Assembly: GCF_964355755.1 (NCBI RefSeq)
Contig: NC_092673.1
Location: forward strand, 28,951,648-29,015,647
Direction: 5' to 3'
Length of the DNA: 64,000 nt
From: Antedon mediterranea
Taxonomy: Eukaryota > Animalia > Echinodermata
Within the stretch, counting starts at the first letter, position 1, and each line of letters opens with the position of its first letter. Made by a program: the position numbers and the translations under genes. This document shows, in pieces, positions 19,665 to 60,400 of this stretch. The notes beneath the pieces were generated by a model, which was not told the DNA's origin, did no database searches, and worked only from the letters and a program-made list of their open reading frames with translations.

Positions 19665-20008
19665 TAGGTAATGCCATACTGCGTTGAAACACCGGTTCTC
19701 GTCAGATCACCGAAGTTAAGCAACGTTGGGCCCGGTTGCGTTCTGGATGGGAGACCGTCTAGAAATCGTGGCGGGTGCTGTATCTGGAGAGTGATGGTGT
19801 AATGGTAATATCGGACTAGCATGTGATAGGCATGGGTTCGAGGTTATCTGTACCATACTAATTGCATCCTTAGGCAAGATGCTTTACTCTCATTGCCTAA
19901 TCTGGTAGGCGCTGCACTGCTGGCTGCCGTGGGTCCGTGGAGGGCCTAATCCGAATTTCCTCACTGAGGACAAATATTAATACAAAATACAAAAATACAA
20001 AAAAAAAA
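19665..20008 (+). mobile_element. Chimeric SINE: 5S rRNA-derived head + tRNA-derived segment + core + A-rich tail
   Basis: About 19673-19783 matches metazoan 5S rRNA (GCCATAC..CGTTGAAACACCGGTTCTCGTCAGATCACCGAAGTTAAGCAACGT..GGATGGGAGACCG). It is followed by A box TGGTGTAATGG, B box GGTTCGA, core CCTTAGGCAAGATGCTTTACTCTCATTGCC and a (TACAAAA)n tail. Confidence 0.8.
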
Positions 20009-24432: not shown

Positions 24433-24493
24433 ATGAAGTCGTTTATAGTGTTTAGCTTATTGGCGGCCGCTTTTGCTGTCCCAACTCCTAGCG
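24433..24493 (+). CDS. MYP: Signal peptide exon MKSFIVFSLLAAAFAVPTPS
   Basis: Basic N-terminus, hydrophobic core, AFA cleavage motif, G|GTAAGT phase-1 donor. Confidence 0.85.
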
Positions 24494-27400: not shown

Positions 27401-30400
27401 CGGTGGCTGACTATAAAGATCCCCTTCCCTTCCTGCTGTAGGCCTACCTCTCTCTTACGCCCGTATTCTTAAACCGGACTTTAGTCGTAGTTCGAGCTAA
27501 AACTTAAAAAATGACGTCATTTTAATTCATAAACCGAACTTCAACTAAATCACCGACTAAATCAGGCCAACCTCGACTAAATCGAGACGGATTTTGATCG
27601 ATTTTTTTAGTCCTGGAGGGGGCAGACTAAATGGTCGACTAAATGGTTTTTAAACGATGTTTATAAAAAACGTAACAATCATTGAGTTGTTATATTGGCC
27701 AGATATTGATGAATGAAATATCTATATTTATATTAGCTTAATTAAATATACATTGGTATAAATTATAATAATGAAAATCATCTTTATTTACAACTGTATA
27801 CAAATTACATTATTTTCTTCGCGCAAGTCCGACTTGAGCTACGTCACGCCATAGCGACAATGGGAGATGCGGCAATTCACCACGCGATGGAATGTTTAGG
27901 GGGCCTAGCGCTTTCTTGTCACGCTATGAAGTGCGTGGTTCGTGGCGATCATACTTTGTTGGGGCCTAAAAAATATAAAAGTTACCGTACCGCCATGGTT
28001 CCTAAATATATTTTTAAGATTTTATTTGTTGTTAATCAAATATACTTCACTGTTAAATTAATACTGATATTGTTCTAATAATTAACGATTAAAATTATTT
28101 TTCATGTATATAGTCCTGATGCGTAAAAAGTGTTGTAAGAAATGGAAAGTGATATCAATGCGCAAAATTTCGTCTGCTCCTCAAATACTCTCTTGTCATT
28201 GGCCAATGTATAGCCTTTGTTACCCAGACGTGTGCAACTCGACTAAAAGCTCGACTTCATTAAGTCGAACTGCAAACTTCGACTACTTCGTTTTTGAATC
28301 GAATTTGAAGTAATAGCTCGAACTACGACTTTTCCAAGTCGAACTTCGAACTACGACTAAAGTCCGGTTTAAGAATACGGGCGTTAGTCTTCCCTTTAAT
28401 GGCCTGTCACGATAAATATGGTCCGGGGCCAAAATCGGTCCGGCCGGACCAGTTTTGGCTCTAAAATTGTAGCCAAAAGCAGTCCGCCACTGCCAAAATC
28501 GGTCCGGGCTTTTCTTCTGTCGATTTTAATTGAATTACTAGGCCTATGATGCTGTTTTAAGTTGTTTATGGCTAGAAAAATATCCCATGATATATATTAG
28601 TAAGTTATCTTGTCGGATAAATACTATAAATAAATGTATTTTATCTAAAAACATGACTTAGGTGTTCACTCATATTTCGGCCTGCCACACACTCACACGA
28701 ACGGGTATGAGACGCTGATATTGCCAGCTAGATTTTATTTATGATTGAGGCATTTTTCCTTCCTCAGCCTAATCAATATTGGATAATTGTTTTATAATAA
28801 TTGTATTGAATTGATATATTGATTGATTAACCATAAATAATTAATAAATTAAATTGTTTTTAACATCATGGGGAAACGAAGATGTTAAAAAAGAACAATA
28901 TGGATTAAAAACAGGCAGAGATACATATTGTATACAAAAAGCCTAACAATTAGTACTTATTATTGATGAGTTACTACTAATAATGATAACTAGAAAAACA
29001 GGCTTAATTTATAATATTAAAATAACAAATAAAACCCATAGTTTTCAATATAATGACTAATACATTTTTTTTTTATGATATAATACATTATGACTCATTT
29101 TGCGCACCATATATTTGTAAGACCGGACCATATTTGGTGGCCAAAAACAGTCCTACTGCCCGGACCGATTTTATCCAGGCCGGACCAGTTTTGGCGGCCA
29201 AAATTGGTCCGGCCGGACAGGTTTTGGCAGCCATAAATGGTCCCCCGGACTGATTTTGGCAGCCAAAACTGGTCCGCCGGACCGATTTTGGCCCGGACTG
29301 ATTTTGGTGTGACAGGCCAATGTCCACTACATAATCCATTGCCAACTTGAATTTTTTTAAACAATAATATTGGTTCAAATGTTTCAAATTTGATGCACTT
29401 GATTGTATGACCCACTATATTAAAGTTTAAAAGAGGTAAAAAAAATATAGTTACTGCAGTAACTTCAGTGGAATAATTTTGACACACCTTGTAGTTGTTA
29501 ATTCAGAGTGGAGTAACTGGAGCGAATGTAGCGCTACTTGTGGTACAGCTACAAAGACACGTAGCAGACCGTGTGTAACCACCGACTGTGTTGGTGAAAC
29601 TACGGAAATAGTAGCATGTGATCTCGATGAATGTGAGAATGGTAAGAAACACAAAAACATTAATGTCTTCAATGATTTTGATTAAGAATAATAATTATTA
29701 AAGATGTATTGTCCCTTTGCCTAATTCTAAAAAAATAAAAGATTTCGAAAAAAGGTGGCTAATTTTGAAGTATCATAATAATTATTAACTTTCACCAAAA
29801 ATTTTTCGAAAAAAAAAATCATTTAACTGAAATACAGACGTTTTTTTGTTAAAAAAATAACTTTGACTTCCAGTCAAAGTTTTCGATCAAAACATATCCC
29901 ATAATGAAACGCGCTTGTTTGGCTACTCTGTATGCAATCATAAAACTGTGTGAAAATACCTTAATCTCAACCGTGACGAGTTGTAAACAATCCTAATTAG
30001 CATATGCATAATGCGTACTCATGGTTTGAAATCTTTGTTTACTTTCGCTCGCGACGATTTTCCAGATAAAATGTAATCAAACTAATTTACCTGTTAATTA
30101 CGTAAACTTCGAATTTTCGACTTAAAGTGAATAACTTTAATATTACTTTGATATGGCCACTTTAAATTTAGAATATTTTGACCTTCATTTTTTTGTGTTT
30201 AAAGGGACAATACATCTTTAAAGATGTAAAAAACATGAACAAATTAGATTTTGAATAGGCCATTTTGTAGGTTTAATAAAGTTGATCACTTCTCCAGAAA
30301 AAAAAATTAATGTTTTCACTTATAAAAAGACAAATAAAATTGGCTAGCAGCCAATTTGATAATTTTTTGCTTTAAATTATTTGTTCAGATTTGTCCTAAA

Positions 30401-33400
30401 TTATTAGGCATATAGAACATCAAAATGGCATATTCAACAAAATTTGGAACAATTATTTTTTCAGCAGGGACAATACATCTTTTATCTTAATTAGTATTAA
30501 GCTTTGATCTAACTGGCACAGACAACTTGCCTTCTATTCTTGACGCATACTGTACTTCTAATTTACAATATGCTGATACTCCCAATTATTGATTTGGAGC
30601 ACCAGAAGCAGCAGTAACACCTCTATAAAAGATGCTAAATAGAGCTCACCCTCTCATACACCCACTAATTACTTTTGTTTGTGTTTGGAACTTCTGTGTT
30701 CAAACAACTTGACTTAGTTCAATGTATCACTCTCTTCTGTTTATTTAGTGCATGATGGAAAAGGTACATTTAATGAATTTATTTACTTTACAGCTGGTCA
30801 ACTTGGCCCTGTCTGTGTTTTTATATTGTGATCTTATATTTCTCGGTGGTTAATTACAAACATGAACCTGTTTTTACTCTATTTTTAAAATTTTTTATAT
30901 AAATAATTTAATTCATGTTTGAAATGTACCAATTATTCAAGATTGATTATCAAACGCTTTGTGACCAACAATCGTCCAATCAAATGAGAAGAATATATTA
31001 AGGTGTGTTATTTAAATAACAAAAATTTAAAGACAAAATAGATGGTTAATTTTAATCAAAAACCAAAGACAATTTAGGTATTTTTGCTTTAAATTACATT
31101 TTTTTTGTTTTGGAAAATAATTTTTTTTTTTCAGTTTTGGGTCAAAGTGAATAACTATATTATTTTTAAAATGGCATATTCAATAAAAAAAAATTAGGGT
31201 AGTTTTTAGGGGGGACAATATATCTTCAATATTTACTATAAATAAAAATCTGAATCAATTAATAGTCTTGTGAAGTCTACTGATTTATTTACATCTATTT
31301 TATAAATTCCTCAAATTTATACTGTACATAAATGGAATAGGCCTATATTAATTTTACAACTTTGTGTGATTTTTAGAACCACACAACGGTAAATGTCCTC
31401 TTTTGACAACTGAGGAGCTAATGGCACGTTGCCCAAACACTGAATGTGAGACGGACACAGAGTGTGCTGATATGCAGAAATGCTGCCGTCTTTCTTGTAA
31501 ACATGGTGCTCGCGGATGCGTTGACGTCCAACCCAGTAGAAGCTTACAACACGGAGTTTTCACAGAAGGTGCTGTATCTCTATTTGCTTATTTTTTTATA
31601 AATAAGAAATTAATCAAAAAATGAACTTTGTTGGTAATGTTTTTTTTTTTCAAATTGTAAATTGTTTTCTAATACAAGATTTGACACCTATAATTTTTTA
31701 TTTTTCCTAAAAAACACAAAAACCGGTAAAAAAGTAATGAAAGTATTAATATATAGGCAACAAAATATAGATTACACTGTTTTGACTTTTTTGATATTTA
31801 TTTTTTTTTAGCATCCTATTGCTAATTTTGTCTTCCTCAACCTTGCTTTACAAACAACGATTGTACGTCAATAAATCAAGAGTTTAAGTGTTGTACAACA
31901 ATTTGATGATTTTATATACACTATTTTTTATAAATGTAATATAAGTATATTTGGTATCTGAGTCTCAAATTATTAACGCAATATTATTAGTTCATTGTGC
32001 GCATGCTCCCCACCTTGAAACAGATCCAGACAATGACCGACGAAACATCGATTATCTCACCTAGGTTGGTTGGTGGTTGGCGCGAATCGAAAGATCCCTT
32101 TTTTGAATTGAATTAAAGCTTTAAACTTTCTTTTTGCGAGATAAAAACAGTAGACAAATATGTTTATGTTAATAGTTCTTTATGTATTTATATAAATTGT
32201 AATTATCCAATCTTATATTTTTTTAATATACTGATTGCAATACAGATTATTGAAGTTGAAAAATAATAAAAGTAACATTTTATTTTAGGTACACTTCCAA
32301 TTTGCTCTGATTGCTCAGAAACAAAGTGTACAACAGACGTTGATTGTGTGTGGCTAGGTGATTATGATACATGCTGTGTGAATATGTATCAAGGTGATCA
32401 AGTCTGTGGTGTTCCAATGAGAACTTTAAATTCTAGTAAGCTCCAACATTGTATATCATAAAACTTTGAATGAAGCCCATGGGCTTCTTTTTTTATTGCT
32501 CTGGAGTGGAGTTTCCTTTCAAGATGGGCTTCTTTTTCGAGGTTACTTTTGCAAACGGAAGAGGAGGCTTCTTTTTTTCTTTTCTTTTGTGAATTGCTAC
32601 TAAAATAATAAGATAAGAGACATCTGCCAAGTTTAAATATTTATGATCAAACGATTTTTAAACATATGTATGATATAAACTCGATCATACATTATATCTG
32701 GCATTAAATCGCCTTGTTTCTTTGATATTCAAATTGTCTATCTAAAAAAGAAGCTCATATTATCTTGAAAAGAAGCCCGATGGGCTTCTTTTCGAGATTA
32801 GATTTTTAGACCAAAGAGGGGGCTTCTTTTTGAGTTGGGCTTCTTTTCAAGGTTTTTATTTACAAGAAGTTTCATATTACAATAAGGATAAATAATAATA
32901 GTATTAACATTGTTAAATAATTAACAGGTAAATTAGTTTGATTACATTTCGCCTGGAAAATCGTCGCGAGCGAAAGTAAACAAAGATTTCAAACCACGAG
33001 TACACATTATGCATGATGCTAATTAGGATTGTTTACAACTTGTCACGGTTGAGAAGGTATTTTCACACAGATCGCGAGGAAGTTTTATGATTATGCATAC
33101 AGAGTAACCAAACAAACGCGTTTCATTATGGGATATGTTTTGATCGAAAACTTTGACTGGAAGTCAAAGTTATTTTTTTAGCAAAAAAACGTCTGTATTT
33201 CAGTTAAATGATTTTTTTTTCAACAAATTTTTGGTGATAGTTAATAACTATTATGATACTTCAAAATGACCCACCTTTTTTCGAAATCTGTTATTTTTTA
33301 TTTTTTTGGAATTAGTCAAAGGGACAATACATCTTTAATATTACTTTGATATGGCCACTTTAAATTTAGAATATTTTGACCTTCATTTTTTTGTGTTTCA

Positions 33401-36400
33401 AGGGACAATACATCTTTAAAGATGTAAAAAACATGAACAAATTAGATTTTGAATAGGCCATTTTGTAGGTTTAATAAAGTTGATCACTTCTCCAGAAAAA
33501 AAAATTAATGTTTTCACTTATAAAAAGTGTATTTGCTTATTTTTTTATAAATAAGAAATTAATCAAAAAATGAACTTTGTTGGTAATGTTTTTTTTTTCA
33601 AATTGTTTTCTAATACAAGATTTGACACCTATAATTTTTAATTTTTCCTAAAAAACACAAAAACCGGTAATAAAGTAATGAAAGTAGTAACATATAGGCA
33701 ACAAAATATAGATTACACTATTTTGACTTTTTTTATATTTATTTTTTTTTAGCATCCTATTGCTAATTTTGTCTTCCTCAACCTTGCTTTACAAACAACG
33801 ATTGTACGTCAATAAATCAAGAGTTTAAGTGTTGTACAACAATTTGATGATTTTATATACACTATTTTTTATAAATGTAATATAAGTATATTTGGTATCT
33901 GAGTCTCAAATTATTAACGCAATATTATTAGTTTATTGTGCGCATGCTCCCCACCTTGAAACAGATCCAGACAATGACCGACGAAACATCGATTATCTCA
34001 CCTAGGTTGGTTGGTGGTTGGCGCGAATCGAAAGATCCCTTTTTTGAATTGAATTAAAGCTTTAAACTTTCTTTTTGCGAGATAAAAACAGTAGACAAAT
34101 AGATATCCTTTTATATACAGTGTACGTTGTCTCCTTTTAAAAATATGTTTATGATAATAGTTCTTTATGTATTTATATAAATTGTAATTATCCAATCTTA
34201 TATTTTTTTAATATACTGATTGCAATAAAGATTATTGAAGTTGAAAAATAATAAAAATAACATTTTATTTTAGGTACACTTCCAATTTGCTCTGATTGCT
34301 CAGAAACAAAGTGTACAACAGACGTTGATTGTGTGTGGCTAGGTGATTATGATACATGCTGTGTGAATATGTATCAAGGTGATCAAGTCTGTGGTGTTCC
34401 AATGAGAACTTTAAATTCTGGTAAGCTCCAACATTGTATATCATAAAACTTTGAATGAAGCCCATGGGCTTCTTTTTTTATTGCTCTGGAGTGGAGTTTC
34501 CTTTCAAGATGGGCTTCTTTTTCGAGGTTACTTTTGCAAACGGAAGAGGAGGCTTCTTTTTTTCTTTTCTTTTGTGAATTGCTACTAAAATAATAAGATA
34601 AGAGACATCTGCCAAGTTTAAATATTTATGATCAAACGATTTTTAAACATATGTATGATATAAACTCGATCATACATTATATCTGGCATTAAATCGCCTT
34701 GTTTCTTTGATATTCAAATTGTCTATCTAATAAAGAAGCTCATATTATCTTCTTTTCGAGATTAGATTTTTAGACCAAAGAGGGGGCTTCTTTTTGAGTT
34801 GGGCTTCTTTTCAAGGTTTTTGTTTACAAGAAGTTTCATATTACAATAAGGATAAATAATAATAGTATTAACATTGTTAAATAATTAACAGGTAAATTAG
34901 TTTGATTACATTTCACCTGGAAAATCGTCGCGAGCGAAAGTAAACAAAGATTTCAAACCACGAGTACACATTATGCATGATGCTAATTAGGATTGTTTAC
35001 AACTTGTCACGGTTGAGAAGGTATTTTCACACAGATCGCGAGGAAGTTTTATGATTATGCATACAGAGTAACTAAACAAACGCGTTTCATTATGGGATAT
35101 GTTTTGATCGAAAACTTTGACTGGAAGTCAAAGTTATTTTTTTAGCAAAAAAACGTCTGTATTTCAGTTAAATGATTTTTTTTTCAACAAATTTTTGGTG
35201 ATAGTTAATAACTATTATGATACTTCAAAATGACCCACCTTTTTTCGAAATCTGTTATTTTTTATTTTTTTTGGAATTGGTCAAAGGGACAATATATCTT
35301 TAATATTACTTTGATATGGCCACTTTAAATTTAGATTATTTTGACCTTCATTTTTTTGTGTTTCAAGCGACAATACATCTTTAAAGATGTAAAAAACATG
35401 AACAAATTAGATTTTGAATAGGCCATTTTGTAGGTTTAATAAAGTTGATCACTTCTCCAGAAAAAAAAATTAATGTTTTCACTTATAAAAAGTGTATTTG
35501 CTTATTTTTTTATAAATAAGAAATTAATCAATAAATGAACTTTGTTGGTAATGTTTTTTTTTTCAAATTGTTTTCTAATACAAGATTTGACACCTATAAT
35601 TTTTAATTTTTCCTAAAAAGCACAAAAACCGGTAAAAAAGTAATGAAAGTAGTAACATATAGGCAACAAAATATAGATTACACTGTTTTGACTTTTTTTA
35701 TATTTATTTTTTTTTAGCATCCTATTGCAACGATTGTACGTCAATAAATCAAGAGTTTAAGTGTTGTACAACAATTTGATGATTTTATATACACTATTTT
35801 TTATAAATGTAATATAAGTATATTTGGTATCTGAGTCTCAAATTATTAACGCAATATTATTAGTTCATTGTGCGCATGCTCCCCACCTTGAAACAGATCC
35901 AGACAATGACCGACGAAACATCGATTATCTCACCTAGGTTGGTTGGTGGTTGGCGCGAATCGAAAGATCCCTTTTTTGAATTGAATTAAAGCTTTAAACT
36001 TTCTTTTTGCGAGATAAAAACAGTAGACAAATAGATATCCTTTTATATACAGTGTACGTTGTCTCCTTTTAAAAATATGTTTATGATAATAGTTCTTTAT
36101 GTATTTATATAAATTGTAATTATCCAATCTTATATTTTTTTAATATACTGATTGCAATAAAGATTATTGAAGTTGAAAAATAATAAAAGTAACATTTTAT
36201 TTTAGGTACACTTCCAATTTGCTCTGATTGCTCAGAAACAAAGTGTACAACAGACGTTGATTGTGTGTGGCTAGGTGATTATGATACATGCTGTGTGAAT
36301 ATGTATCAAGGTGATCAAGTCTGTGGTGTTCCAATGAGAACTTTAAATTCTAGTAAGCTCCAACATTGTATATCATAAAACTTTGAATGAAGCCCATGGG

Positions 36401-39400
36401 CTTCTTTTTTTATTGCTCTGGAGTGGAGTTTCCTTTCAAGATGGGCTTCTTTTTCGAGGTTACTTTTGCAAACGGAAGAGGAGGCTTCTTTTTTTCTTTT
36501 CTTTTGTGAATTGCTACTAAAATAATAAGATAAGAGACATCTGCCAAGTTTAAATATTTATGATCAAACGATTTTTAAACATATGTATGATATAAACTCG
36601 ATCATACATTATATCTGGCATTAAATCGCCTTGTTTCTTTGATATTCAAATTGTCTATCTAAAAAAGAAGCTCATATTATCTTGAAAAGAAGCCCGATGG
36701 GCTTCTTTTCGAGATTAGATTTTTAGACCAAAGAGGGGGCTTCTTTTTGAGTTGGGCTTCTTTTCAAGGTTTTTATTTACAAGAAGTTTCATATTACAAT
36801 AAGGATAAATAATAATAGTATTAACATTGTTAAATAATTAACAGGTAAATTAGTTTGATTACATTTCGCCTGGAAAATCGTCGCGAGCGAAAGTAAACAA
36901 AGATTTCAAACCACGAGTACACATTATGCATGATGCTAATTAGGATTGTTTACAACTTGTCACGGTTGAGAAGGTATTTTCACACAGATCGCGAGGAAGT
37001 TTTATGATTATGCATACAGAGTAACTAAACAAACGCGTTTCATTATGGGATATGTTTTGATCGAAAACTTTGACTGGAAGTCAAAGTTATTTTTTTAGCA
37101 AAAAAACGTCTGTATTTCAGTTAAATGATTTTTTTTTCAACAAATTTTTGGTGATAGTTAATAACTATTATGATACTTCAAAATGACCCACCTTTTTTCG
37201 AAATCTGTTATTTTTTATTTTTTTTGGAATTGGTCAAAGGGACAATATATCTTTAATATTACTTTGATATGGCCACTTTAAATTTAGATTATTTTGACCT
37301 TCATTTTTTTGTGTTTCAAGCGACAATACATCTTTAAAGATGTAAAAAACATGAACAAATTAGATTTTGAATAGGCCATTTTGTAGGTTTAATAAAGTTG
37401 ATCACTTCTCCAGAAAAAAAAATTAATGTTTTCACTTATAAAAAGTGTATTTGCTTATTTTTTTATAAATAAGAAATTAATCAAAAAATGAACTTTGTTG
37501 GTAATGTTTTTTTTTTCAAATTGTTTTCTAATACAAGATTTGACACCTATAATTTTTAATTTTTCCTAAAAAGCACAAAAACCGGTAAAAAAGTAATGAA
37601 AGTAGTAACATATAGGCAACAAAATATAGATTACACTGTTTTGACTTTTTTTATATTTATTTTTTTTTAGCATCCTATTGCAACGATTGTACGTCAATAA
37701 ATCAAGAGTTTAAGTGTTGTACAACAATTTGATGATTTTATATACACTATTTTTTATAAATGTAATATAAGTATATTTGGTATCTGAGTCTCAAATTATT
37801 AACGCAATATTATTAGTTCATTGTGCGCATGCTCCCCACCTTGAAACAGATCCAGACAATGACCGACGAAACATCGATTATCTCACCTAGGTTGGTTGGT
37901 GGTTGGCGCGAATCGAAAGATCCCTTTTTTGAATTGAATTAAAGCTTTAAACTTTCTTTTTGCGAGATAAAAACAGTAGACAAATAGATATCCTTTTATA
38001 TACAGTGTACGTTGTCTCCTTTTAAAAATATGTTTATGATAATAGTTCTTTATGTATTTATATAAATTGTAATTATCCAATCTTATATTTTTTTAATATA
38101 CTGATTGCAATAAAGATTATTGAAGTTGAAAAATAATAAAAGTAACATTTTATTTTAGGTACACTTCCAATTTGCTCTGATTGCTCAGAAACAAAGTGTA
38201 CAACAGACGTTGATTGTGTGTGGCTAGGTGATTATGATACATGCTGTGTGAATATGTATCAAGGTGATCAAGTCTGTGGTGTTCCAATGAGAACTTTAAA
38301 TTCTGGTAAGCTCCAACATTGTATATCATAAAACTTTGAATGAAGCCGATGGGCTTCTTTTTTTTATTACTCTGGAGTGGAGTTTCCTTTCAAGATGGGC
38401 TTCTTTTTCGAGGTTACTTTTGCAAACGGAAGAGGAGGCTTCTTTTTTTCTTTTCTTTTGTAAATTGCTACTAAAATGATAAGATAAGAGACATCTGCCA
38501 AGTTTAAATATTTATGATCAAACGATTTTTAAACGTATGTATGATATAAACTCGATCATACATTATATCTGGCATTAAATCGCCTTGTTTCTTTGATATT
38601 CAAATTGTCTATCTAAAAAAGAAGCTCATATTATCTTGATTCTTTTCGAGAGGGGGATTCTTTTTGAGGTGGGCTTCATTTCAAGGTTTTTATTTACAAG
38701 AAGTTTCATATTACAATAAGGATAAATAATAATAGTATTAACATTGTTAAATGTTACAGTTCTTTACGCTGCCAAATTCCATAGGTCACACATTATACTT
38801 TTTGATACCACCTGTATTTTTCAAATAGACTACAGGTATTTCAAGAGGTTTCCAAGCGACATGGGCCCATGGTTTCCTCTTGGGCTTTTTGCCAAATGTT
38901 TTATAAATAAATTAATATTTATTATATATTTTCATTGATAGGGTTGAATGACATATGTAGAACACCAGATAAATTCACCATCACATACTTACTATGTAAA
39001 ACTGATGCCAACTGTAAACAGGGTACGTTTTGCTGTTTCGGTGCTGGTATCCCGTATTGTGTTAAGCCAAAGAGTAAAGCGTTACTGTTCGGTAAGATCT
39101 TATGTTAAATTATTGTCATAATTGCTATTATTTTCCCATTTTTATCTTTTTGGTATTCTGTCTTTAGTTAAATTTCAATTTCTACTTTATTTTTTCTTAC
39201 TGTTTGTCTGTTGCACAAAAATAGATGTCTTATGAATTGAATATTGTTTGATTATAATCACATGCTCAAGTATGATGTGATTACTGCCATCTCAAAGGGT
39301 TTAGGCCTGGACCTGGCCTCTTGTTAAAAGAATAGTCATCACTGATTATGATATAGTGGAGCAAAACTTTTTACTTTTGTTATTTTTCAGATTCAAACCC

Positions 39401-42400
39401 TATGTGTCCTCCAAATTATTTCCCCAACTACTTTACCGAAATTCCATGTTCAGTCAACAATATTTGTCCCAATGGTATGATATGCTGTCTGGATTCTAAA
39501 GATAGTCGGATCTGTGCTTATCCAAAAACCAAGTCTTTAATATCTGGTAAGTTTTCAAATTATTTTATTATTGTTTTATATATTGTTTGAAGGTTTGCAT
39601 GGCGAAATCAAATGTTGATATAAAGTTTGCGGTACACCATGTATATTAGTTCTGAAAAGATCTGTTGAGTTTCTCGACGTTTCGATCAATGCTTTGACCG
39701 TCCTCAGGAGTGCAGTGGCGCGGTATGCAGTGGCGGCATTGCAGTGGCGGCATTGTAGTGGCGGCATTGCAGCATTGCAGTGGCGGCATTGCAGTGGCAG
39801 CATTGCAGTGGCGGCATTACAGTGGTGGCATTGTAGTGGCAGCATTGCAGTGGCGGCATCGCAGTGGCGGCATTGCAGTGGCGGCATCGCAGTGGTGACA
39901 TTGCAGTGGCGTCATTGCAGTTGTGTCATTGCAGTGGCGGCATCGAAGTGGCGGCATCGCAGTGGCCGCATCGCAGTGGCGCCATCGCAGTGGCGGCATT
40001 ACAGTGTGGTGTATTCATCCTTGCAAAATGAGAATAGGAAGCCTACCATCATTAAAATCTTTGTACAGAATTGTTATTGGGATTGTTAAATTAGTCAAAC
40101 TTTGACTCGCTTCTTTACTCGCACAAAATGGTTGTTACTGAAACTGTTATCATACGCCACGAATATATTACTTCCAGAGTGCTATAAAATGGGCGATGCT
40201 GTGGATTATCGAGGCTCAGTCAATACAACCATCTCCGGTAAAGCGTGCCAGTATTGGACCTCGCAGATACCTCATAAGCATGCACGGACAACGGTAAAAT
40301 ATCCTGACAAAGGTTTGGGAGATCACAACCTCTGCCGTAACCCTGATGGAGAGGTTTCTGCTTGGTGTTACACAACAGATCCGACTACGAGGTACGAAAT
40401 GTGTGACATTGGCAATCCGGGAGAAAACTGCGGAACACCAGGTAGGAGTTTTTAAGTGTGTTGTATAGTTATTAATTTTAAATTATTTATAAATAAATTA
40501 CTTAATTATGAAAATCAACATTGTTATGCTTCTTTAAATGATTTAAATTACTTGTATTGTGTTGTAGTTTTTAAACCCAGTTTGAGTAAAAATTAAAATA
40601 TCAAATACCGTAAGTAATATTTGTACCCACATGTATTCAATAATTTTTCATTTATTCCAGAACTTAATTCCATGTGTCCTGAGAGCAACAATCACGTGTT
40701 TTTCACAAATATTGCTTGCTCCTCTGACAATGAGTGTGAGGAAGATCTTTTATGCTGTTTTAGAGAATCTGTTGGCCAAGTCTGTGCTTTCTCAAAAACA
40801 AAGAACTTAGTTACAGGTAATTAAGTTTAGTGTACATATCCTGCTCTGAGTATGCTGTAAGGTCAATATAAAGAACACTTTCTCATGAAGAAAACCAGAA
40901 AAATATCTTTAACACTACAGCTAACCTCTATTAAAGGGACACGATGTTGGCCCTAAAGGTGTCCCCTGAATATGGGTTGATGCTGCAGAACTGCGCATAC
41001 ATTATTTAAATTTTTTAAGCATGACTAGAGATACCAAATTATTTTCTAGTATACATAATGACATATATTATGCAATCATTAGTTTCACAAAAATTGTTTA
41101 GGTTTTTTTGGATTTTTTTTCAGAGTTAAATTCTTTGTGTCCTTTAAGTTCATTTCCTGGTTATTTCACAAACATTGCCTGCGGAACGGATGATGATTGC
41201 CCCAGTGATCTGTTATGTTGTCATGGTGATAATGTAGGCCAGGCATGTGCATTTTCAAAGACCAAGTCTTTAATATCTGGTGAGTTTCTGTTGTCGGCCT
41301 AATTTCAAATCATTTATTATGACATAATGAATTTCATTTGTATATGTGAACAGCAAGGATGCGTGCTGTGCCACACTTAAAGAGTTCAGAGCCATCTCTG
41401 CTACACAAGGCATTATTCCCCACCTTCCCCCTCCCCCAACTTTTTCTGCATCTATCATCCCTTTATGATAATCAAAATCTACCGTTTTCAGAATCCCTTT
41501 GTGATATACTTTACCCAAAATCTACTTTTCAGAATCCCTTTGTGATATACTTTACCCAAAATCTACTTTTCAGAATCCCTTTGTGATATACTTTACCCAA
41601 AATCTACTTTTCAGAATGTTACAAAATAGAGAATGCCGTAGATTATCGAGGTGCAGCCAATACAACCATCTCTGGTAAAGCTTGTCAATCCTGGACCTCG
41701 CAGACACCTCATAAACATACAAGACGGCAAGACAGGTATCCAGACTCTGGTGTAGGAGATCACAACCTCTGCCGTAACCCTGATAAGGAGTCTTCTGCCT
41801 GGTGCTACACAACCGATCCAAAGACAAGATGGGAGGTGTGTGATATTGGAAGACCTGGACAAAATTGCGGATTAGGTAAGAACAATGAACACAGTTAGTT
41901 GTACTTTTTAACTTGTTTCGCACTCATTGCTTTGCGGACAATGAATGAGGAAGATCACCTATGTTGTTTAAAGCTCTGTCTACACAAACTTTATGTGACA
42001 AAACAATGTGATGTGCCCATATTGACACGATGATGTCATATCACTACTGTATTTGGGCATATCACTACCATATTTGGGCACATCACACTTTTTTTTGTCA
42101 AACTAGTTTGATGTGTATACAGAACGTAGACAGTCCATGTGGGTACCAAACTAAGGAACCTTCTGCATATCCAAGAAATGTTATTAAGCATGTTTTTGTT
42201 GTAAATGACCAAATAAATCTTGTACATTCGTGTAACAGGTTCGTACTACTAGCGTCGTAGCTTTATCGCGTAGTATTTTCCGGAGCTGCAGCACTGGCAC
42301 AAACACAATAAAATCATCCACAGAGACAGTTCTTGGTTTGGAAAAGTTAAATTCTTTTATTGAAGCTAGTAACCAGTCGGAAGGAGATATAACAAAAACA

Positions 42401-48400: not shown

Positions 48401-51400
48401 CAAGTAAGCGGCTGATGCTTGTGATCCAAGAGAAGTAATCTTGTGTATTGAGATATACTTCAAGTGCTTCCCCACTCCAAACTCGATCCAAAGCTTGTGG
48501 ATGCCAGGTATTCTGTGGAAAGTTGACAATGAAATAACAACAACATCACTGTCTACAGTCTTGACAAGAATGCGCGGACAAATTTTAGCGACATGAACAA
48601 ACATACGTTCATCTGCCTCTTCTATGTTACATGGCATCAGCGGTTTTATATTTACAGACTGGTTTGTTACAGCTCTGTCTCGCTCTCAGAGACCCTACAA
48701 ACATTCCGTGATTTGTGTCAATGTTCTCTACTACTCTGATTTGTTGTCGTCATATCTCAAATATGTGGTCCAATTGTTGGGCATGCTCCTACTGGCTTTG
48801 ACGCCCCTCCTTAAACCAGAGCCGCGGTTTGAACGCGTACTAGCGCGTACTAGACTTTAAATCGTCGTTAAAGTATCTATCGAAAACCAAATCTGGTCAC
48901 GTCACTGATCGAAGTTGATGGTCTATATATGGTTGTACGACAAAATGAAGCACCATTAGTTGCTGCCAAGGTGTTAGATGGACCAGCAATAATCAATATG
49001 CTCAGGCCCAATGATTCGAAGACATTCATTGAGTATATATCAAGTGTCATACAACCATCAACTTCGATCAGTGACACGACTAGATTTGTTTTTCGATAGA
49101 TACTTTAACGACAGTTTAAAGGCTGGTACGCGTTCAAACCGCGTCTCTGGTGTAAGGAGGGTCGTTAAAGCCAGCAGGAGCTTGCCCAACAATTGGACCA
49201 CATTTTAGCTGTAACAAACCAGTAAATATACAATCGCTGATGCCATGTAACATAGAAGAGGCAGATGAACGTATGTTTGTTCACGTTAAACTTGCCGCTG
49301 AAATTTTCCACGCATTGTCAAGACTGTACACAGTGATGTTGTTGTCAGCTTTCCACAGAATACCTGGCATCCACGAGCTTCGGATCGAGTTTGGAGTGGG
49401 GAAGCACTTGAAGTACATCCCAATACACGAGATTGCTTCTTCTCTTGGATCACAAGCATCAGCCGCTTACTTGTTCTTTCATACCATTAGCGGTTGTGAT
49501 AGAACTTCATCTGTTTAAGGAAAAGGTAAAGCTACATTTAACGAGACTTTGAAAAAGATGCCATGTATGACTCCAGTTTTTGAGAGGATGTCATTGTCTG
49601 TAGGGCATGTTAGTGAAACAGACACAGATTATCTAGAACAGTTTGTTGTAACTATGTCTACTGCAGAACATTTAATGATGCAAGACGATATCTTTTTACA
49701 ACAAGAGAAAGACTATTGAAAATATCCCCCAACATCTGCAGCATTAAGAGAACTTGTGAAACGGAAGCCAGGAAGTGGTACGACTGTCTAGATGCATTCA
49801 GGGTTGAACAGGACCCAGCGAACTGGGGATAGAGGAAGGACGGCAACAAATTTAGTCCAGCTTGGAGTTCATTGCCGGAACTTTCAGATGTCACAAAGGT
49901 TTTAATTCGCTGTAGACACACCGACTGTGATCTTGGATGCTGTAAATGCAGAAAGAGTGATTTACGATGTACAGAGCTGTGTGGTTGCCAGGGAAAATGT
50001 GATCTACAATAAGTGTCCGTGTTAAATGCATGTAATTATGAACATAAACAAATAGTGTAAAGCCAGTACGGGTTGAGCTACATTCAAAATGGCCGCCATG
50101 CAATCAAAGACGTTATACCAATATGTTTGTTGACCTCAATACTATATTATACTTTGTACCTAAAATTATAACTGTAGGTACCGTACTGAAACATTTTGAG
50201 TTCGCCATTTTGAAATTCAAAATGGCCGCCATGCAATAAAAATGTCAGTTAAATACCAATATGTTTGGTTACCCATTACCATATAATTGGCACCTAAAAT
50301 CAGAACTCTGTGTACCTTTTTAGCAGAGATACCTGAAAAGTGAAAATTTGAAGTCCGCCATTTTGAAATCCAAAATGGCCGCCATGCAATCAAAATGTTA
50401 GTTATACCAATATGTTTGGTGACCCCATTTACATATAATTTGCACCTAAAATCAGAACTCTAGGTGCCTTTTTAGCAGAGATATGCCTGAAAAATGAAAA
50501 TTTGAAATCCGCCATTTTGAAATCCAACATGGCCGCCATGGAATCAAAATGTTAGTTATACCAGTATGTTTGGTGACCCCACTACCATATAATTTGCACC
50601 TAAAATCAGAACTCTAGGTGCCTCTTTAGCAGAAATATACCTAAAAAGTGAAAATTTGAAGTCCGCCATTTTGAAATCCAAAATGGCCGCCATGCAATTA
50701 AAATGTTAGTTATACCAATATGTTTGGTGACCCCATTACCATATAATTTGCACCTAAATTCAGAACTCTAGGTGCCTATTTAGCAGAGATATACCTGAAA
50801 AGTGAACAATTTGGGTCCGCCATTTTGAAATCCAAAATGGCGGCTTTCCCCTGACCAAATTTTGTGCAACCCTTCCATTTCATATTTTTGACACCCTAAT
50901 GAATAACTGTGCAAAGTTTCAGAATGTTATCACAATTTGAAGGATTGGGTCACTTAACAGGCCTACTATACCATTGGTTTATTATTTAATGTATTTTCTT
51001 GTAAATTATTTGTATTCATATTGTCTTGTAGTCTTATGTTGAAACCGAATAAAATCAGTTCAAATTTATAAATTAATGAAATATTAAATTGCAATCTATT
51101 TTCCCTCAGCGACTCGTGTTTGTCCAGTGTACCAGTGTAACTTTTTAAAGCATATTTTTACTTTTTAATTTTTGTAATCCTCATTGTTTTTCATGTTTTT
51201 GTTCTAATAATAGTAAACAAATAAAATAAAACATATAGTAGTATATGAAGTATAGCGTCTTCACCCATGTTCTGCTTTGATAGAGACTAACATTGACATT
51301 ATTTTATTTTTTTAAAGAAAAACCAAAATCAATAGTAGATAAAACATTGTCCGATTTACGACCTGATCAAATCATCCCAGAGGCGGAAGACAGAATACGA

Positions 51401-54400
51401 TTTTGTGTCCCTAGTGCCTGCGAATACAAGAAATGCCAACGTATGGTCAATGAGTTGATTTATAATCTAATTCCACGTCAAGATTGGAGATGTATACAGG
51501 CTGAGTCAAGAGAACACTGTGCATACTTGTAAGCCCCATTCAGTGATTTTATTGATTAATAGATAAATTGATTGATTGATAATTTATTTATTAATAGATA
51601 AATTGATTGATATATAATTTATTGATTAATAGATAAATTGAGTGATTGATAATTTATTGATTAATAGATAAATTGATTGATATACAATTTATTGATTAAT
51701 AGATAAATTGATTGATATACAATTTATTGATTAATAGATAAATTTAGTGATTGATAATTTACCTCATAATTGTTTTGGCTATTATTGAACTTTTTTTTTA
51801 GTTAAGTTATTTCAATTGATTTTTCAAATAAAGTCATTGATTGATAGATATATTGATTAAGACACTTTTGATTGTAGATAATTTACATTGATTGATAATA
51901 ATATTTCATTCTATTTATTTCATTAAAGTATGGAAGCCCGATCGGGCCACAAGTTAACTATATTTTAAAAGCTGTTATCTGGCGGCCGCCACTTAATTAT
52001 CTGGTGGCCGCCACTTAATTATCTGGCGGCCAGATAACAGCTTTTAAAATATAATTAACTTGTGGCCCGAACGGGCTTCCGTATCAAAGCATTAAAAAGA
52101 TACAACAAAACAATGAGTGATAGATACATTTATTTAAAGACATATGCAGTACAGTTGTACAATTATAAATACAATGTTGAATCAATTGATAATAATAATT
52201 ATTTATTTGTCTGTGTGTATTAGGGTTTCTAAAAGATTTGCTGATGTAGCTGTTGCCCGTGTAGATGGCATTTATACCGCTATCAAAAAGTACAAATTGA
52301 AACCAATTGCGTACGAGGCACCTGTCATCAAGGTATAGTCAGCTTATATTAAGTTTTGTTTTTTTTAGAAAATTCTGTTAGAGTATAGGTAGTGCCTAAT
52401 TTTAACCTAACCTTTTATTATTTAAATCACAGATCTCACCTTAAATATATATTGTCCCTCTAAACATAAAAAATAAATGTTTTTAACTTTTTTAATGTCA
52501 CATAATAGTTGTTTCTTGCTACTTTTAAATCTTCACTCTGGGAAACATATTATAAAACCAATTTTTTACCTTTACTATTGTAACTAAATAGTTTACATTT
52601 TTTTAAAGTATTGTATATATGTTATTATTATATTATGTTGTCACTGAACCATTGAAAGTGTTAAATAAAAAAGAAATAAATAAATATTGTACTCTTTTCA
52701 CATAATCATTAAACCATTTTTTCCAATCCTTTGCATCAAATACATGCAAATGTCAAAATCTTGAAAAAACGTCTAAACACAGAAGCATTTCCTGTTTTGT
52801 TTCTAAACAATATAGATGGATACCAGCGCTATTTAAGTTTGATTGATTGAGATGCATAGAGGCTTATCCATAATCTTGTGCTTCTTATATCTTGACAGGG
52901 TTCATCGGAATCTGAGGCATTGAATGTATGGGAAAGTATCACTCTTGCCATAACTAAAAGAGATAATTCAGACATCAGCAGATGGTCTGATCTTCGTGGA
53001 AAGAAGTCTTGCCATGCCGGCATCAAAGAGATATTCAGCTTCAAAGCACCAGTCTGCAGTCTGATCCAAAAGGACATCATTCCACGGAATGGAGATTATG
53101 TTGAAAGTGCTAGTCAGTATTTCTCAGGAAGCTGTGTTCCTGGTAAAACACTTTGTTTGCTATCTTTTTTGCAAATGGATATAAGATTTTTGTTTTAATT
53201 TAATCCGCATAGGATAGGACACACACACACCCATGCTTTCTACAGTATGAGATGTGGTACGATAAAGATGTGGCACTTTTTGACCAAAGAGAAAAGTTTA
53301 TGGGAATATATTCAAAAACTGACCTAAAAACCTAAGCACTTCTTTTAGCCTTTTCAACAATAGTCATGGATTTTTTCAAAATCACTAAAATTAGGAACTT
53401 TTTAAATTATTATTGTGCTCTAATATTTCTTGCAATGACATAATTTAGTCACTCTAAAACCCTGTCTACACTATTAAAATAATCTGATGAAGTGTGATGT
53501 GACATCATCATGTCCATGTATGAGCACATCACATTTTTATATTGTATAGACAGAACTTTAAACTTTTTTTTTATTTCAGTTAACTAATTCTATTTATTGA
53601 TTATCTGTACAGTATCCATGTAAAGCTCTGTCTATACTATATGTCAAACTTTATGTGACAAAATCATATATACAATATGGGCATATCACACTTTTTTATC
53701 AAAATAGTTTGATAGTGTAAACAGAGGTTAATTTGTATTAATAGGTATTCTTGATGAGAAATATAATGTTCAATCTACCTACCCACTGAAACTCTGTGAT
53801 GTTTGCGCTAAAAACAACGGACTTTGCGGCATTTCTGATAGATACGCAGGCATTGAGGGCTCTCTTCAATGTATCGATGAGTCAAAGGGACAGGTCACGT
53901 TCATTGACAACAAATCTTTGGAGAAGATTATTGCTGATGGCGGTAAGACATGTTCAGAAATAGTCAAAAGAAAGGGTTACTAAGAAGATTATTTCTCAAC
54001 AGAAAGTCTTTTAAATGTAAATTAAAGGCTTAAGATCATAATAATAAGATTCTGCACTCACTCTATACAATAAAAACAGTTAATATAGACCTTATGCAGG
54101 TAAATTAAACAATAGTGTAATACAAATAAAACTATAAATAACATGAAATAAAAGTTGTACTGTATCCCACACAGAATCTCCTTTTAAAACTTTCAAATAT
54201 ATGTCATAACACTAACATTGACGTCTACTCAAAAGTGTTACTAATGTTGCTCCTGTATTCGGGTCGCCATCTTTGTGAGAGTCACTTATAACAGCGTTGA
54301 TGATCATGCACAAACATTTCTTAAATTTACATGAGTCTATTGTTTCAATTCAACAATCTAATTTGCATACATTTTAATATACAGGTGCAAGCAAATACAA

Positions 54401-57400
54401 GGTGGTCTGTGAAGGAGAATCTATTGACCTTGAGAATGACGCCAACTCGTGGAAGACCAACAAAGCTTGTCACCTTGCTGTGACCCCTAGACCCACGGTG
54501 ATGGTCAGCCCTCACAAAACCGCGGACTATATTAGTACTGTTATGGACCTTTTGGCCAAGGCATCTAAAGTAAGTTTGTAGTGTGATTAAATTTACTGCA
54601 TGTATAGTAGTAAGGTTTGCTGTATACACAGATTTAGTAAACAGATGACAAAATGCTAAAACACATCTTGTGTTGAAACAGACAAAGTACTGTACAGATG
54701 TTTAGTTTACACTTCTTAATCTTAGTTTGACAAAAAAAAATGTGATGGGTGCCCATATATGGACACGATGATGTCATATCACTACTATATTTGGCACATC
54801 ACACTTTTTTTGTTAGACCGAACTTAAGACAAAATAATATGCAAAATAAAGATGGTTAAAATAACTATATCCAAATAAAAATATGTTATGTATTAGTAAT
54901 ATTTTTGGTGCCAACAGAATTATGGCAAGAAGTCTGTGAGCAGCTTTAAACTGTTTGAGTCTCTCAGCTACAAATGTCAAATCAGTGAAGGCGTCTACGA
55001 AAAAGATGTTATCTTCAGAGACGCTGAAGCGCAGGAGATACGTGAATTTGTGCCCATTGGTGATAAACCTTTTGCCGCAGATTACATCCAAGAGTATTCA
55101 AGCTGCATGAAAATGGTTCCTCAACCTAGGGCTAAGTTCTGTGTTGTTACTCGGGCCGCCTTTGACAAGTGCTTAAAGATTAAAGAAAACTTTGACAAAA
55201 CGGAATTGGTAAGAAAAAAAATTTTTTTTAAGATCACACAGACAAAATAGATAAGATAAAATGCTTGGATTGGACCAAATTCTGAATTTTTGTGGGGAAT
55301 TCTGTTTTTCAGAACACGCATACCCTTAGGGCCAAAGTATTTCTCCAATTAAAACGATTGGCCAGAGTTTTAAAACATATATTGCCCTTTGTTAGGTGTT
55401 TCCAAAAGGAGGGATTCTACTGTAACAATTCTTAATAATAATGTTGGGTTATGGATGATACAGTAAGGAGCGAACACTGCAGAGCACTGGCTATATATTT
55501 TTGGTATTGCTTTTTGTGTGTTTATAGGTTAATACAGTAGCATGGGGATGTGTGTTGAAGCCGTCCAAAATGGAGTGTATGCGAGCTGTACAGGAGGGAT
55601 CTGCAGATCTTCTATCAACCGACGCCACTGAAACATTCATTGCGGGTCGTGAGTTCAAACTTCAACCAATCCTCAGCCAGTATTTTGATACCCTTACTAC
55701 TGTAAGTTCAGTTTGTTGGTTTTATACAGATATGTGTTTACTATGGCAGAACACATATAATTTAGAAACGAAATTTGGCGTTGATAATAATTTGCTGTGC
55801 ATGCTTGGCATCCAATTAGGTGTAAAATAAAATAGAGGTTCAATTTGACTGGCACTGAACCTTCTTAGAGCTATTTGTCTTACTGACCATGCAACAACAT
55901 AAATCTTCAAAAGAGTACCTTTCATTACCATCATGCAATTGCTTTAATATAGTCATCTGGATAAATAATAGTAGTATTAATATTAATTGAAAATTTTATT
56001 TTAGGATATTTACCCAGGCATCACCAAGAATGCATTTAATGATACTACCTACACGTACACCATTGGTATCATGAAGAAAGATCGGTTTTACGATTTATAT
56101 GGTGCTGATACCCGTGAAATCACCAGTCTACGTGATTTGAACACTTGCCATGCTGGCATGAAAAAAGTGAGTTCGGTAAACTAATATAGTCGTTTCATAT
56201 TCTGAAGTATTAAATCAACATTTTTATTTGATGTGTAAAGCTCTGTCTACACTATCAAACTAATTTGACCAAAAAAAAGTGTGATGTGTGCAAATGGTAT
56301 TGATATATGTCATATATGGGCACATCACATTTTTTTGTCACATCAAGTTTGAGAGTGTAGATAGTGCCTAAGGCTTACAAATAGTCTTGTTTTTATATGG
56401 AGTTTTTGTTTTATATTTCAGTTGTCATCCTTCCACCATCCTATTGGCTGGCTCTTGGCCAATGGAACTGTTCCACGTATCGGTTCAATTTTTGAGTCCG
56501 TCAAAAGATACTTTGGCCGTTCTTGCCTTCCAGGTAAACAAAGAAAAAATATATTTGAAACTATTTATTTTTTTATATTTGTTTGTGATCTTTTCTAATT
56601 CATAGAGTTAAGCTCAGTCTACATTATCAAACTATTAACAAAAAGTGTGATGACATTTTTTTGTGACGTAAAGTTTATAGTGTAGACAGAGCTTTATTTG
56701 TCTCGCACAATACTAAACCATAACTTTGTATAGTCGGAACAGGCTTTAAGATCATTTTTTTTTTTTTTTACAAGGATCTGACCCGGCCATATGGAGAATG
56801 GATGCTGATTTGCTAATGGGCCATGAAATTAACTGGGGATTCAGGAGCCTAAACTTCTACAACTTTACTGGTTTTGATTGGTTCATTTGGAACTCACCAG
56901 CCACCTGGAATTATTACAACTGGAACAAATATACTCCAGCGTAAGAATAAGCATCTAAAATTCTCATCAATAGTAGAACATCATGTCTGTAGTCATGAGG
57001 GTTAGAGTATTTAAAAGGCCCCCCTCCCTCCCCACTTTAGCAGTGGAAGTAACGGTATATAAGGCTTGCCTAGCTTGTGATGATTAAATAGCCTTCTTCG
57101 GCAATGGCAATGAAATAGATATTGCTTGCCTACAAAATTTTAGAATAATGGGTGATTATATTTGTACTTGTTTTTGAGGTCACATGTCACTTGAAGAATG
57201 ATTCAGAATTGCTGGGGTTTGGAAACTAGTGAGCGTTTTAGCCTATAAATTGTAAAATAAAGTGTTGAACTTTATCTACTAAAGTTTTATATTCCATCCA
57301 GCAATGTATTTTTCTAAATTTAGAGGAGAGGAAAGGTTTGGTGTGTGGTTGTTGATATGTAGGTTAATATCCCGGTTAATATGCTGTGGACAGAGTTTTA

Positions 57401-60400
57401 AATGTGTTATTGGCTAATAATCATTTTTATAAACATTCTGCAGTTGTAGCTTTGTAAATGTATTTTCTGTTTTCTTATACAACAGCACTCTGAAATCATT
57501 GCTGGAGTTAGTTGATGAAGAAGTGGGAATTTCAAGAGTTGAACACGGTGAACATGAGGACATTGATTGGGATATGCTGGAAGATATCCTCAATTACCCA
57601 GATGGTCTCATGGTAGGTGCCTTTAGCTATTTCTGCTGGCGAAGTGCTCAATTAAAGCAAACTCATTTATGGTGTTCTAGTATTTTAAATACTGTATAAG
57701 TAATAATGCTCCACATCTATTTTCAACTGGAGATTGAATATTATTTGTATATAACCATTATAATGTTCTTGTTGTAGTCACCAGAATTGGACGATCCTCC
57801 TATCAACATGTTCAATTCCAAGAGAAAAGAGTGAGTAGAATCATATTATTCACTTACAGAATTTAGCGGTAATATTGGAATTCAAGATTCTGGATTCAAT
57901 TCCTGTCAGATGTCAAGATTTTTTTCTCATGATAAAAAGACTTTGTTTGTGTACAGGGTTCATGGCTATGGCTATCATTGACAATTTGCTAAATTAAGAA
58001 TAAACTCCTAAACCTAAAATTAATTAACAATTATTTCATTTTTGATTATACACTAATTATGAAATTACTTTATCATTTAATGATCAATTAGATATTATAT
58101 AAATAAATTGCCAACGTTTGTTGTTTGAGAAGAAAGTATTACCGTAAGATCAATTTGTTCTTTTCAGAAGCGACAAACAAATAAGGAGGAAGATATTGTC
58201 ATATGCGCTTCAAACACGCACAGAGAGAATGGAAAAATTAGGAGAGATCATGCAATTACTTCACAACATTCCAACTCTACAAGACATCCGCACGGACGAT
58301 GAGGATTGGCTCAGCCATCCAGCTGTTCAGGTAAAATGGTTTTCTGTCTTTTTTCTCTTTTTTTCTTTCCTCTTGTGTTCTACTCTCCTTTTTCCTTGCC
58401 TGTTTTTACTTACCTTCTTTCTGCTTTTTTTCTTCCCTTTACTGGTGCTCTATTTTCCTTCTTCCTTTGCTTGTGTTTCTGCTTCATTTTCCCCTAAGCT
58501 TGTGCTTATTTCTTTTTAATTTTTGATTAAGCTCGACGTGTGTAAATAACATGTCTATTTTAGCCTGTCACCTCAGGTTCTTTCAGCTTCTGTCGAAATT
58601 CAGCTCTATTCGTATTTTATTTCTAAATCATATTGTCATTTTGTCTATTCAATGTAATCCTAGCATAAAAATATATATATAAAATTAATTTATATTTATT
58701 TACTAGAGTTACCTCCAGATATACTTCCCAAGCATGGTCGGTTTTACCAGCGAAATATTTGAAGATGCAGAAATACGTAAACGTGAATTCAATCGATATA
58801 ATAACCCAATCTGGCTGTCTTCAGGCTATGCTGATTTTGTTAACACCATGCAGGTAACTGAAAAATATTGTAACATCTGTTTTTAATAAAAAAATAAACC
58901 ATATTATGATTATAATAATTGTAGCTACATAATATAATTATAATAAATAAAAGATGCTTGTTAGTTATTATATAATATTAAGTTATATATGGTGCCCTAA
59001 CCAAGAACAATACATACACTACTTAAGTCTTATATTAGGATGATGATATACTGTAAGATAGATTTGAGCAAAAGTAATACATTGTCTAAACGAACACTGT
59101 GAAACATAGTTACAATAATTCAGCATAGTCTAGCTCACAATCGATATATAATCCCATAAATTGATTGTGTAATAAAATGCCTCTGACGGGACAAGAACGT
59201 ATGTAAAAAAAAGTTTATGATACATTGTATCAGTGATCACCTACAATATGCTGTCAACTGGTTGTTTTGAGTAAAAACCCCTGAGATCTTAAAAGGTTGT
59301 GGCATCTGTTCTTTTACAGCATTTCCTCAATTTGGCTAATTAAACTATATACAACAACATTCATTTTATTTCCTTAGTCCTACCAGAAAGATATGTGCAG
59401 TAGCTGCATTGGATATGGAGACAAGAAATGCCAAGAGACAACTGCTGAACCATATTATGATTATGCTGGTGCTCTTGCTTGTCTGGAAGAGAAAGGTGGT
59501 GACATCTCTTTCTTTGAAGCTCAAGAATTCCAGAAGCTCCTGAACGCCGATAGTTCTAAACGACCAGAAGAATACATTCTTGTTTGCCCAACTGGTGCGA
59601 TTAGGTTGTACGAGAAGGATGTCAGCGTTGTTGAGCAATGTAACTTTGGCAGAGTTCCTTATCCTGCTGTTGTGACTGGTCAGGAAAGAACTGGTAGGTT
59701 CTTCTTGAATTCTTTGAACTCATCAGTCAATATAACTACAGGTATACAGTAAACTGTAGTTGCTTTGGTACAATCCTCTTCAAAGGACACTCCTGCTATA
59801 AGAACAAGGTCTAGTTTAACACAATGGTCAACCTCTATTTAAGGATTATTAAGGGAACACTTTAATTGGTCCCTAAGGTGTCCTGTTAGATTATATACTG
59901 TAATGCTATGTCCAGAAACCCACAGTGTTTTGTAGACCTTTGCCGTTTTCTTGCATTGTTGGTCCTGAAGTTGTCCCGTTAATAGGTGATCTACGTATTT
60001 GTATCATTCCCGTTCTTTAAGTGTTCAGGGCCTCATGCATGTCAGCCTCCGCTGTTTTGAGTCACCCTCATTAAACAAAGTTTAATCAAATAAAAAAATA
60101 ACATTTTTTTTTAAATATGCTCAGAAACCCAAAGAAACCTTTTATTAAGAAGAATGGTAAAATTAAAGGAGTATTTTATTTACAGGCACATGGAGATGGG
60201 AAGTAACCAAAGCTATACTGGAGGCTCAAAAGACCTTTGGCGTTGTCCAGCATCGTGAACAACAGCATGAAGCTCAATTTACCATATTTGGCGTGAACAG
60301 CGTGTTTGATGTAGCCACCACTGAAGTGAAACCAATCGATATCTTAGACCAGATCTATGAAGTGTACATCGGTCAGAACCTTCTCCGTTCCATGGAAGCC

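Follow-up and report, generated by a model that had tools for sequence, protein, structure and literature searches.

A recent tandem exon array in the repeatedly remodelled head of a major yolk protein gene in a crinoid

Background

A stretch of 64,000 nucleotides from the crinoid Antedon mediterranea (assembly GCF_964355755.1, contig NC_092673.1; hereafter, the window) contains four successive copies of one short exon, each embedded in nearly the same intron sequence. This locus raises the questions of which gene the exons belong to, how the copies arose, and whether their number is a real and variable property of the encoded protein. Exons repeated in tandem are a familiar phenomenon, which keeps the surprise moderate.

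The host gene and its modular head

By the likeness of its core, the host gene was assigned to the crinoid major yolk protein (MYP, or toposome), a transferrin-like protein. A downstream exon matched the Anneissia japonica major yolk protein-like (66%), and a search with the core gave 19 proteins, 18 of MYP type and one melanotransferrin. The core of the annotated A. mediterranea record (P0007) was 65% identical to that of Anneissia, as against 38-44% when Anneissia was compared with the MYPs of other echinoderms, and a tree of the core placed the two crinoids together as sisters (FastTree, 1.00). Orthologous transferrin lobes were found, with a signal peptide (predicted by likeness) and a WAP-type module before the core.

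P0007 matches the window exons at or near 100%. It lacks its 5' part and continues into the following gene, an LRR-SAM-RING gene; it starts inside exon 39391, and 408 upstream residues, array included, are absent from it. Eighteen exons joined from 24433 onwards, across the array and as far as the core, gave a translation of 1,018 aa with 0 stops, equal to P0007 at 610/610 overlapping residues. With a last exon near 62093, the full predicted protein has about 2,018 aa, and the predicted head before the core has 937 aa. The public annotation of Antedon mediterranea misses this long modular MYP head.

The head reads, in order, signal peptide, TSP1, WAP, four repeats, two WAP-like modules and a kringle, followed by two WAP-like modules, a kringle, a WAP-like module, a kringle and a last WAP-like module before the core (Table 1); this last module (45394) had no WAP match in Pfam. 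The three kringle exons, which sit just downstream of the array, are real ones. The TSP1, WAP-like and kringle exons form one phase-1 cassette, and since every cassette exon is of phase 1-1, exon gain or loss would preserve the frame. Exon shuffling of several ages is visible within this one gene, with 99% identity in the array, 90% at the nucleotide level between exons 40661 and 43074, 74-79% among the kringles and a tier of about 30%, in addition to a relic, a dead half-exon at 44815-44938.

Table 1. Features of the window, with positions counted from its first nucleotide.
Feature	Position	Strand	Description	Basis
First coding exon	24433..24493	+	predicted signal peptide	likeness to Anneissia MYP N-terminus
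TSP1 exon	29495..29641	+		PF00090, 42.8 bits; end used in X9 spliced contig
Canonical 8-Cys WAP exon	31377..31568	+		PF00095, 32.7 bits; 3' end from X9 contig
Tandem array	31581..38752	+	3.67 units of ~1.95 kb	self-BLAST and unit alignment
Unit 1	31581-33529		1949 bp	
Unit 2	33530-35494		1965 bp	
Unit 3 (mosaic)	35495-37447		1953 bp	
Unit 4, partial	37448-38752		1305 bp	
Repeat exon, copy 1	32289..32435	+	147 nt coding for 49 aa with 7 Cys (WAP-like), phase 1-1; last base A	
Repeat exon, copy 2	34274..34420	+	last base G	
Repeat exon, copy 3	36206..36352	+	last base A; inside mosaic unit 3	
Repeat exon, copy 4	38159..38305	+	last base G	
Spacer between exon blocks	32918..33529	.	also in units 2 and 3, missing after copy 4	
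Two 6-Cys WAP-like exons	38942-39091, 39391-39546	+		PF00095, 19.8 and 19.6 bits (cut-off 20.8)
Kringle exons (n=3)	40178-40441, 41615-41875, 44246-44533	+		
WAP-like exons interleaved with kringles	40661-40816, 41124-41279, 43074-43229, 45394-45552	+		
MYP core	51318..62120	+	transferrin lobes and C-terminal cystine-knot-like part	

Structure and history of the array

Self-BLAST of the window returned 31581-36835 and 33530-38752 as a direct repeat with an offset of 1949 (E = 0.0). The array begins at 31581, 12 bp past the donor of the canonical WAP exon, and not at 31578 as first placed. The original observation of four copies stood as regards the exons, all of 147 nt and identical except for their final base (A, G, A and G in the alignment), and had to be reduced as regards the units, which number only 3.67, the fourth being partial. 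A full unit consists of an exon-bearing block of 1.3 kb and a spacer of 0.6 kb, the spacer being absent from unit 4. The units differ by 0.52-1.35% substitutions plus 2-6 indel events per pair, and such kilobase-scale repeats at 99% are far above chance expectation. At this divergence, and with the frame open throughout, the description as a very recent, in-frame exon-plus-intron tandem array is upheld. A count of exon conservation inside the array (1 exon event versus 3.6 expected, P = 0.13) gave no selection signal.

The spacer is composed of an inverted 90% copy of 29696-30100 and of a 194/195-identical copy of 30135-30329. Contigs of sequencing runs were used for comparison: 10 runs contained part of 36100-45600, and 4 of these 10 were compared over 29400-32900. 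The region at 29.7-30.3 kb had very high contig depth in all four runs examined. The spacer thus appears to be high-copy transposon-like DNA, for which terminal inverted motifs suggest the label of MITE; its inverted piece may originate elsewhere, being no closer than 90% to the local copy.

Four informative 2|2 events fall into two incompatible partitions of the units (12|34 twice and 13|24 twice), and identical tracts extend over 865 bp (units 1 and 3, beginning before the exon), 819 bp (units 3 and 4) and 616 bp across junctions. The numbers of private events in units 1 to 4 are 9, 7, 1 and 10, respectively. All nine of unit 1 precede the ten of unit 4 (runs test, p = 1e-5), and this placement in opposite halves is as expected for edge units. 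Unit 3 is a recombinant mosaic. Exchange between units is hence recorded in both the incompatible splits and the long identical tracts, crossing-over and gene conversion being indistinguishable from the array sequence.

What is established is the array itself, a frame that stays open from the signal peptide across its four copies as far as the MYP core, and the mosaic nature of unit 3; the following history is proposed for them. The 1.3-kb exon block would first have been duplicated, with transposon fragments left at the junction; long identical tracts would then have permitted misaligned recombination (unequal crossing-over or conversion), leading to four copies. The predicted 2,018-aa protein would gain 49 aa (5.3 kDa) in frame from every unit. 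The last base of the repeat exon shares its codon with the next exon, A giving an N-S-S glycosylation sequon and G none, so that the A/G difference would toggle this sequon on in copies 1 and 3 and off in copies 2 and 4. We give a probability of about 0.7 to this reading, namely a four-exon WAP-like array in the MYP head, produced by one transposon-associated duplication and then by unequal crossing-over or conversion.

The repeated module

The repeated unit looks like a degenerate WAP-like module, probably WAP-derived, rather than a member of the family, and not like a kringle. It has 7 Cys as against eight in the WAP four-disulfide core (PF00095), C7 being absent, and this odd count would leave one unpaired Cys per copy. 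Its C2-C3-C4 spacing, CC pair and last Cys align with those of the WAP domain, from which it differs by a short first loop and a longer C4-C5 loop. Five of its Cys align with those of seven sister modules in the gene, at 23-33% identity. Pfam gave no WAP match at E <= 1 and no kringle match either. Against a custom profile of other MYP modules, the module scored 8.6 bits, a score reached by 0/1000 full shuffles and 16/1000 Cys-fixed shuffles, and its top local scores were with Anneissia WAP modules.

The predicted structure of the module had a pLDDT of 80.7. Fold searches with this model gave no clear match (best Foldseek E 0.74), and the best structural comparison reached Z 2.9 with an rmsd of 3.2 over 34 aligned positions; a profile of the cassette gave weak matches to solved WAP proteins (best E 0.069). 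Thirteen matches to the repeat module were considered as relatives and rejected, 12 of them being bacterial Ig-like repeat proteins aligned without cysteines and the 13th being without Pfam family. An 11-residue match was also rejected. Another search for relatives of the module gave no candidate, and a further one gave one match at 0.75 among those listed.

Copy number

If the array is a true coding VNTR, alleles differing in unit number would segregate and produce MYP size isoforms, as KIV-2 does in apo(a), a reading to which we give about even odds. Units that are 0.5-1.35% apart, and identical over stretches as long as 865 bp, make a good substrate for unequal exchange. Unit number was approached through the contigs of run X1, using depth as a per-contig mean, which is not a copy number by itself and served as support only; X1 is probably the source sample of the assembly and thus not independent of it. 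The three array contigs listed for X1 had depths of 21.2, 26.7 and 25.3, that is 7.5, 7.5 and 7.3 per window copy (from 31-mer multiplicity), and unique contigs (n=4) had depths of 8.0, 7.6, 8.1 and 6.4, one flank contig (depth 2.9, 8 differences), which probably stems from a second haplotype or a paralogue, being set aside. The resulting ratio of array to unique depth is 0.94-0.99, for expectations of 1.0 (4+4 units on the two haplotypes), 0.88-0.94 (4+3) and 0.75-0.88 (4+2). The X1 depth is therefore best matched by about four units on each haplotype, which tells against segregating unit numbers, with 4+3 also allowed.

Run X5 represents a different sample with the same organism code, and its listed contigs account for 1078 of the 1320 array bases, at a depth of 2.6-4.3. 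Two of the four listed array contigs have no counterpart among the window's four units, with errors possible at that depth; these shallow contigs hint at turnover of unit sequence, in favour of a VNTR, but provide no unit count. Variable module number is also found in the Anneissia MYP, for which the annotation gives six isoforms, between 1568 and 1746 aa long, that differ in it; as all six come from one contig, they would be splice or mapping variants rather than alleles.

Head turnover in relatives and possible function

Anneissia japonica has an MYP-like protein (XP_033098842.1 and its isoforms) that shares with the window gene a tandem series of almost identical Cys modules, placed after the signal peptide and ahead of the core. 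In its isoform X1, 10 WAP modules were counted, 7 of them 84-100% alike. Unlike the repeat module of the window, these are canonical 8-Cys WAP modules, and none exceeds 40% likeness to that module; nor do they group with it, a weak result from a short alignment of ~50 residues. No kringle or TSP1 motif was found in the Anneissia MYP. Judged on these sequences, the Anneissia WAP repeats would be an array of their own, separate from the one in Antedon mediterranea. In P0009, a brittle-star-like protein that is sister to Amphiura in the core tree, one kringle lies between two WAP modules and is 49-55% like the window kringles, a likeness too general to separate shared origin from parallel gain.

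WAP domains are often protease inhibitors or defence factors, and kringle and TSP1 modules bind partners. By analogy, the MYP head is likely a string of small disulfide-bonded modules for binding or for moderating proteases, whose number would be weakly constrained, and the four-fold repeat count itself is likely near-neutral. Sea urchin MYP is described as a nutrient reserve and zinc carrier of gonad and coelomic fluid (PMC13666137), as plentiful in yolk or coelomic fluid with binding of Zn or Ca (PMC13666137, PMC5854732), as mediating cell adhesion (PMC5854732) and as being cut stepwise by a yolk proteinase (PMC2289500), and vitellogenin is given as the main yolk protein of sea stars and brittle stars (PMC10799875). 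In the literature searched, most subscription papers being outside it, nothing was found on a crinoid MYP head or array, nor on the role of crinoid MYP in yolk.

A bolder proposal, which we consider rather doubtful, is that of a hypervariable, length-polymorphic crinoid MYP head, with gain, multiplication and loss of WAP-like, kringle and TSP1 exons fast enough for close relatives to differ in module set, separate fresh arrays in two crinoid lineages, alleles and splice forms carrying a glycosylation switch at the last base, a varied binding or protease-control repertoire under diversifying selection, and a parallel kringle gain in P0009. Such a repertoire would belong to a protein whose main known role is to carry nutrients and zinc.

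Silent exons or assembly artefact

That the array exists in the genome but is largely silent, its exon decaying or usually skipped and the protein unchanged, seems unlikely to us. The observations in its favour come partly from a close relative (organism B, run X9), of which one contig ends its TSP1 part exactly at the donor, has 414 letters between the TSP1 and WAP exons without match placed on the window, and passes from the WAP exon to letters matching exon 38942 (28/30 by eye), the repeat exon being skipped. This spliced-looking contig may be read as a transcript that lacks the repeat exon and carries different modules further upstream. Moreover, a DNA run of the relative had zero depth on 32325-32441 at 85% likeness. 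The contig would also fit a rarely included exon. Omission of the four exons from P0007, the odd Cys number of the module and the dead half-exon in the same gene point in the same direction.

Against silence, AG/GT ends and phase 1-1 are kept in 4/4 predicted repeat exons, together with a pyrimidine-rich acceptor and an open frame in all copies. Their donors have 6-7 of 9 matches to the U1 consensus, for a range of 4-8 over 29 donors. By this crude match count, a final A may slightly weaken the donor; G at -1 is absent in 4/13 core donors too. As the repeat exon is intact despite its low identity to the sister modules, a coding constraint would have been kept for long.

An assembly artefact, in which both haplotypes of a shorter array were placed end to end or copies were multiplied too often, is very improbable, for although the A/G/A/G pattern and a 17-bp deletion common to units 2 and 4 resemble a doubled pair, the units carry private variants, other shared events group units 1+2 against 3+4, and the read-depth check, from the contigs of the single run X1, speaks against a false join, with a per-copy depth equal to the unique depth where a 2+2 join predicts a ratio of 0.50-0.77.

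Comparison with known systems

As in the echinoderm MYP/toposome, a WAP-type module precedes the transferrin lobes in the window gene, which differs from other echinoderm MYPs by the addition of TSP1 and three kringles. MYP heads elsewhere have 120-173 aa in the other 11 echinoderm records, named or star-like, 254 aa in P0009, 463 in Anneissia isoform X6 and 18-37 in hemichordates and amphioxus. Crinoids are the sister group of the other living echinoderms, and their MYP has a long modular head. The array of Antedon mediterranea is best described as a recent one in an MYP head that was repeatedly remodelled.

The comparison with LPA KIV-2 was made as an analogy and is retained as such, as a likeness of architecture only. 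KIV-2 is described as a kringle unit of 5.6 kb that holds two exons and is present in 1-40 copies per allele (PMC11462820), and an exon-terminal G>A change, 4925G>A (KIV-2.2 +0G>A), is given as a splicing modifier (PMC7613587). Homology to LPA/apo(a) was rejected: the repeat exon has no kringle match, the kringles lie in three other exons and the host is transferrin-like. Units of the two arrays are not homologous, the window having one 147-nt WAP-like exon per 1.95 kb, and allelic variation is established for LPA, whereas that of the window array is putative. Common to both are whole exon-plus-intron units, highly alike and head to tail, each carrying a whole in-frame module of a secreted modular protein.

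Array boundary and exon relic

The tandem array of WAP-like exons begins at position 31581, 12 bp past the donor of the canonical eight-cysteine WAP exon (31568), and this donor matches the U1 consensus at only 4 of 9 positions, the lowest score among the 29 donors scored. Further downstream, the dead half-copy of the WAP-like exon at 45394 is identical to it over the final 64 bases and the donor; the 5' half of the exon is missing, and no in-frame acceptor was seen for the relic. In the intron between cassette and core (45600-51000), besides a reverse-transcriptase fragment, a second element containing 153-bp tandem repeats is present as two decayed copies in inverted orientation. The copies of the 0.93-kb element are 95% identical and have terminal inverted repeats of about 44 bp.

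Features of the window outside the array
Feature	Position	Strand	Remarks
Coiled-coil exons, gene upstream of MYP	3103-18556	+	gene end ~18559
First exons, LRR-SAM-RING gene downstream of MYP	62965-63719		
5S rRNA match, single, full length	19666-19786		60.2 bits
0.93-kb element, two copies	1988-2914 and 27454-28391	opposite	window self-comparison
Dead half-copy of exon 45394	44815-44938		
Reverse-transcriptase fragment	46019-46768		PF00078; within intron 45600-51000

Neighbouring genes and public gene model

The upstream gene is tentatively labelled EVI5-like, a label for which a Pfam search of the coiled-coil gene returned no significant backing; the downstream gene is tentatively labelled LRSAM1-like. 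Compared with window positions 24433-62120, the public A. mediterranea model (P0007) is 5'-truncated, lacking the signal peptide, TSP1, WAP and array exons, and on its 3' side it is joined to the LRR-SAM-RING gene. The probable true end of MYP in the window resembles that of Anneissia MYP.

Kringle in another echinoderm MYP

The brittle-star-like record P0009 is an MYP that the core tree pairs with Amphiura as its sister, and its head is ordered WAP-kringle-WAP. Together with the crinoid, this makes two echinoderm lineages whose MYP contains a kringle.
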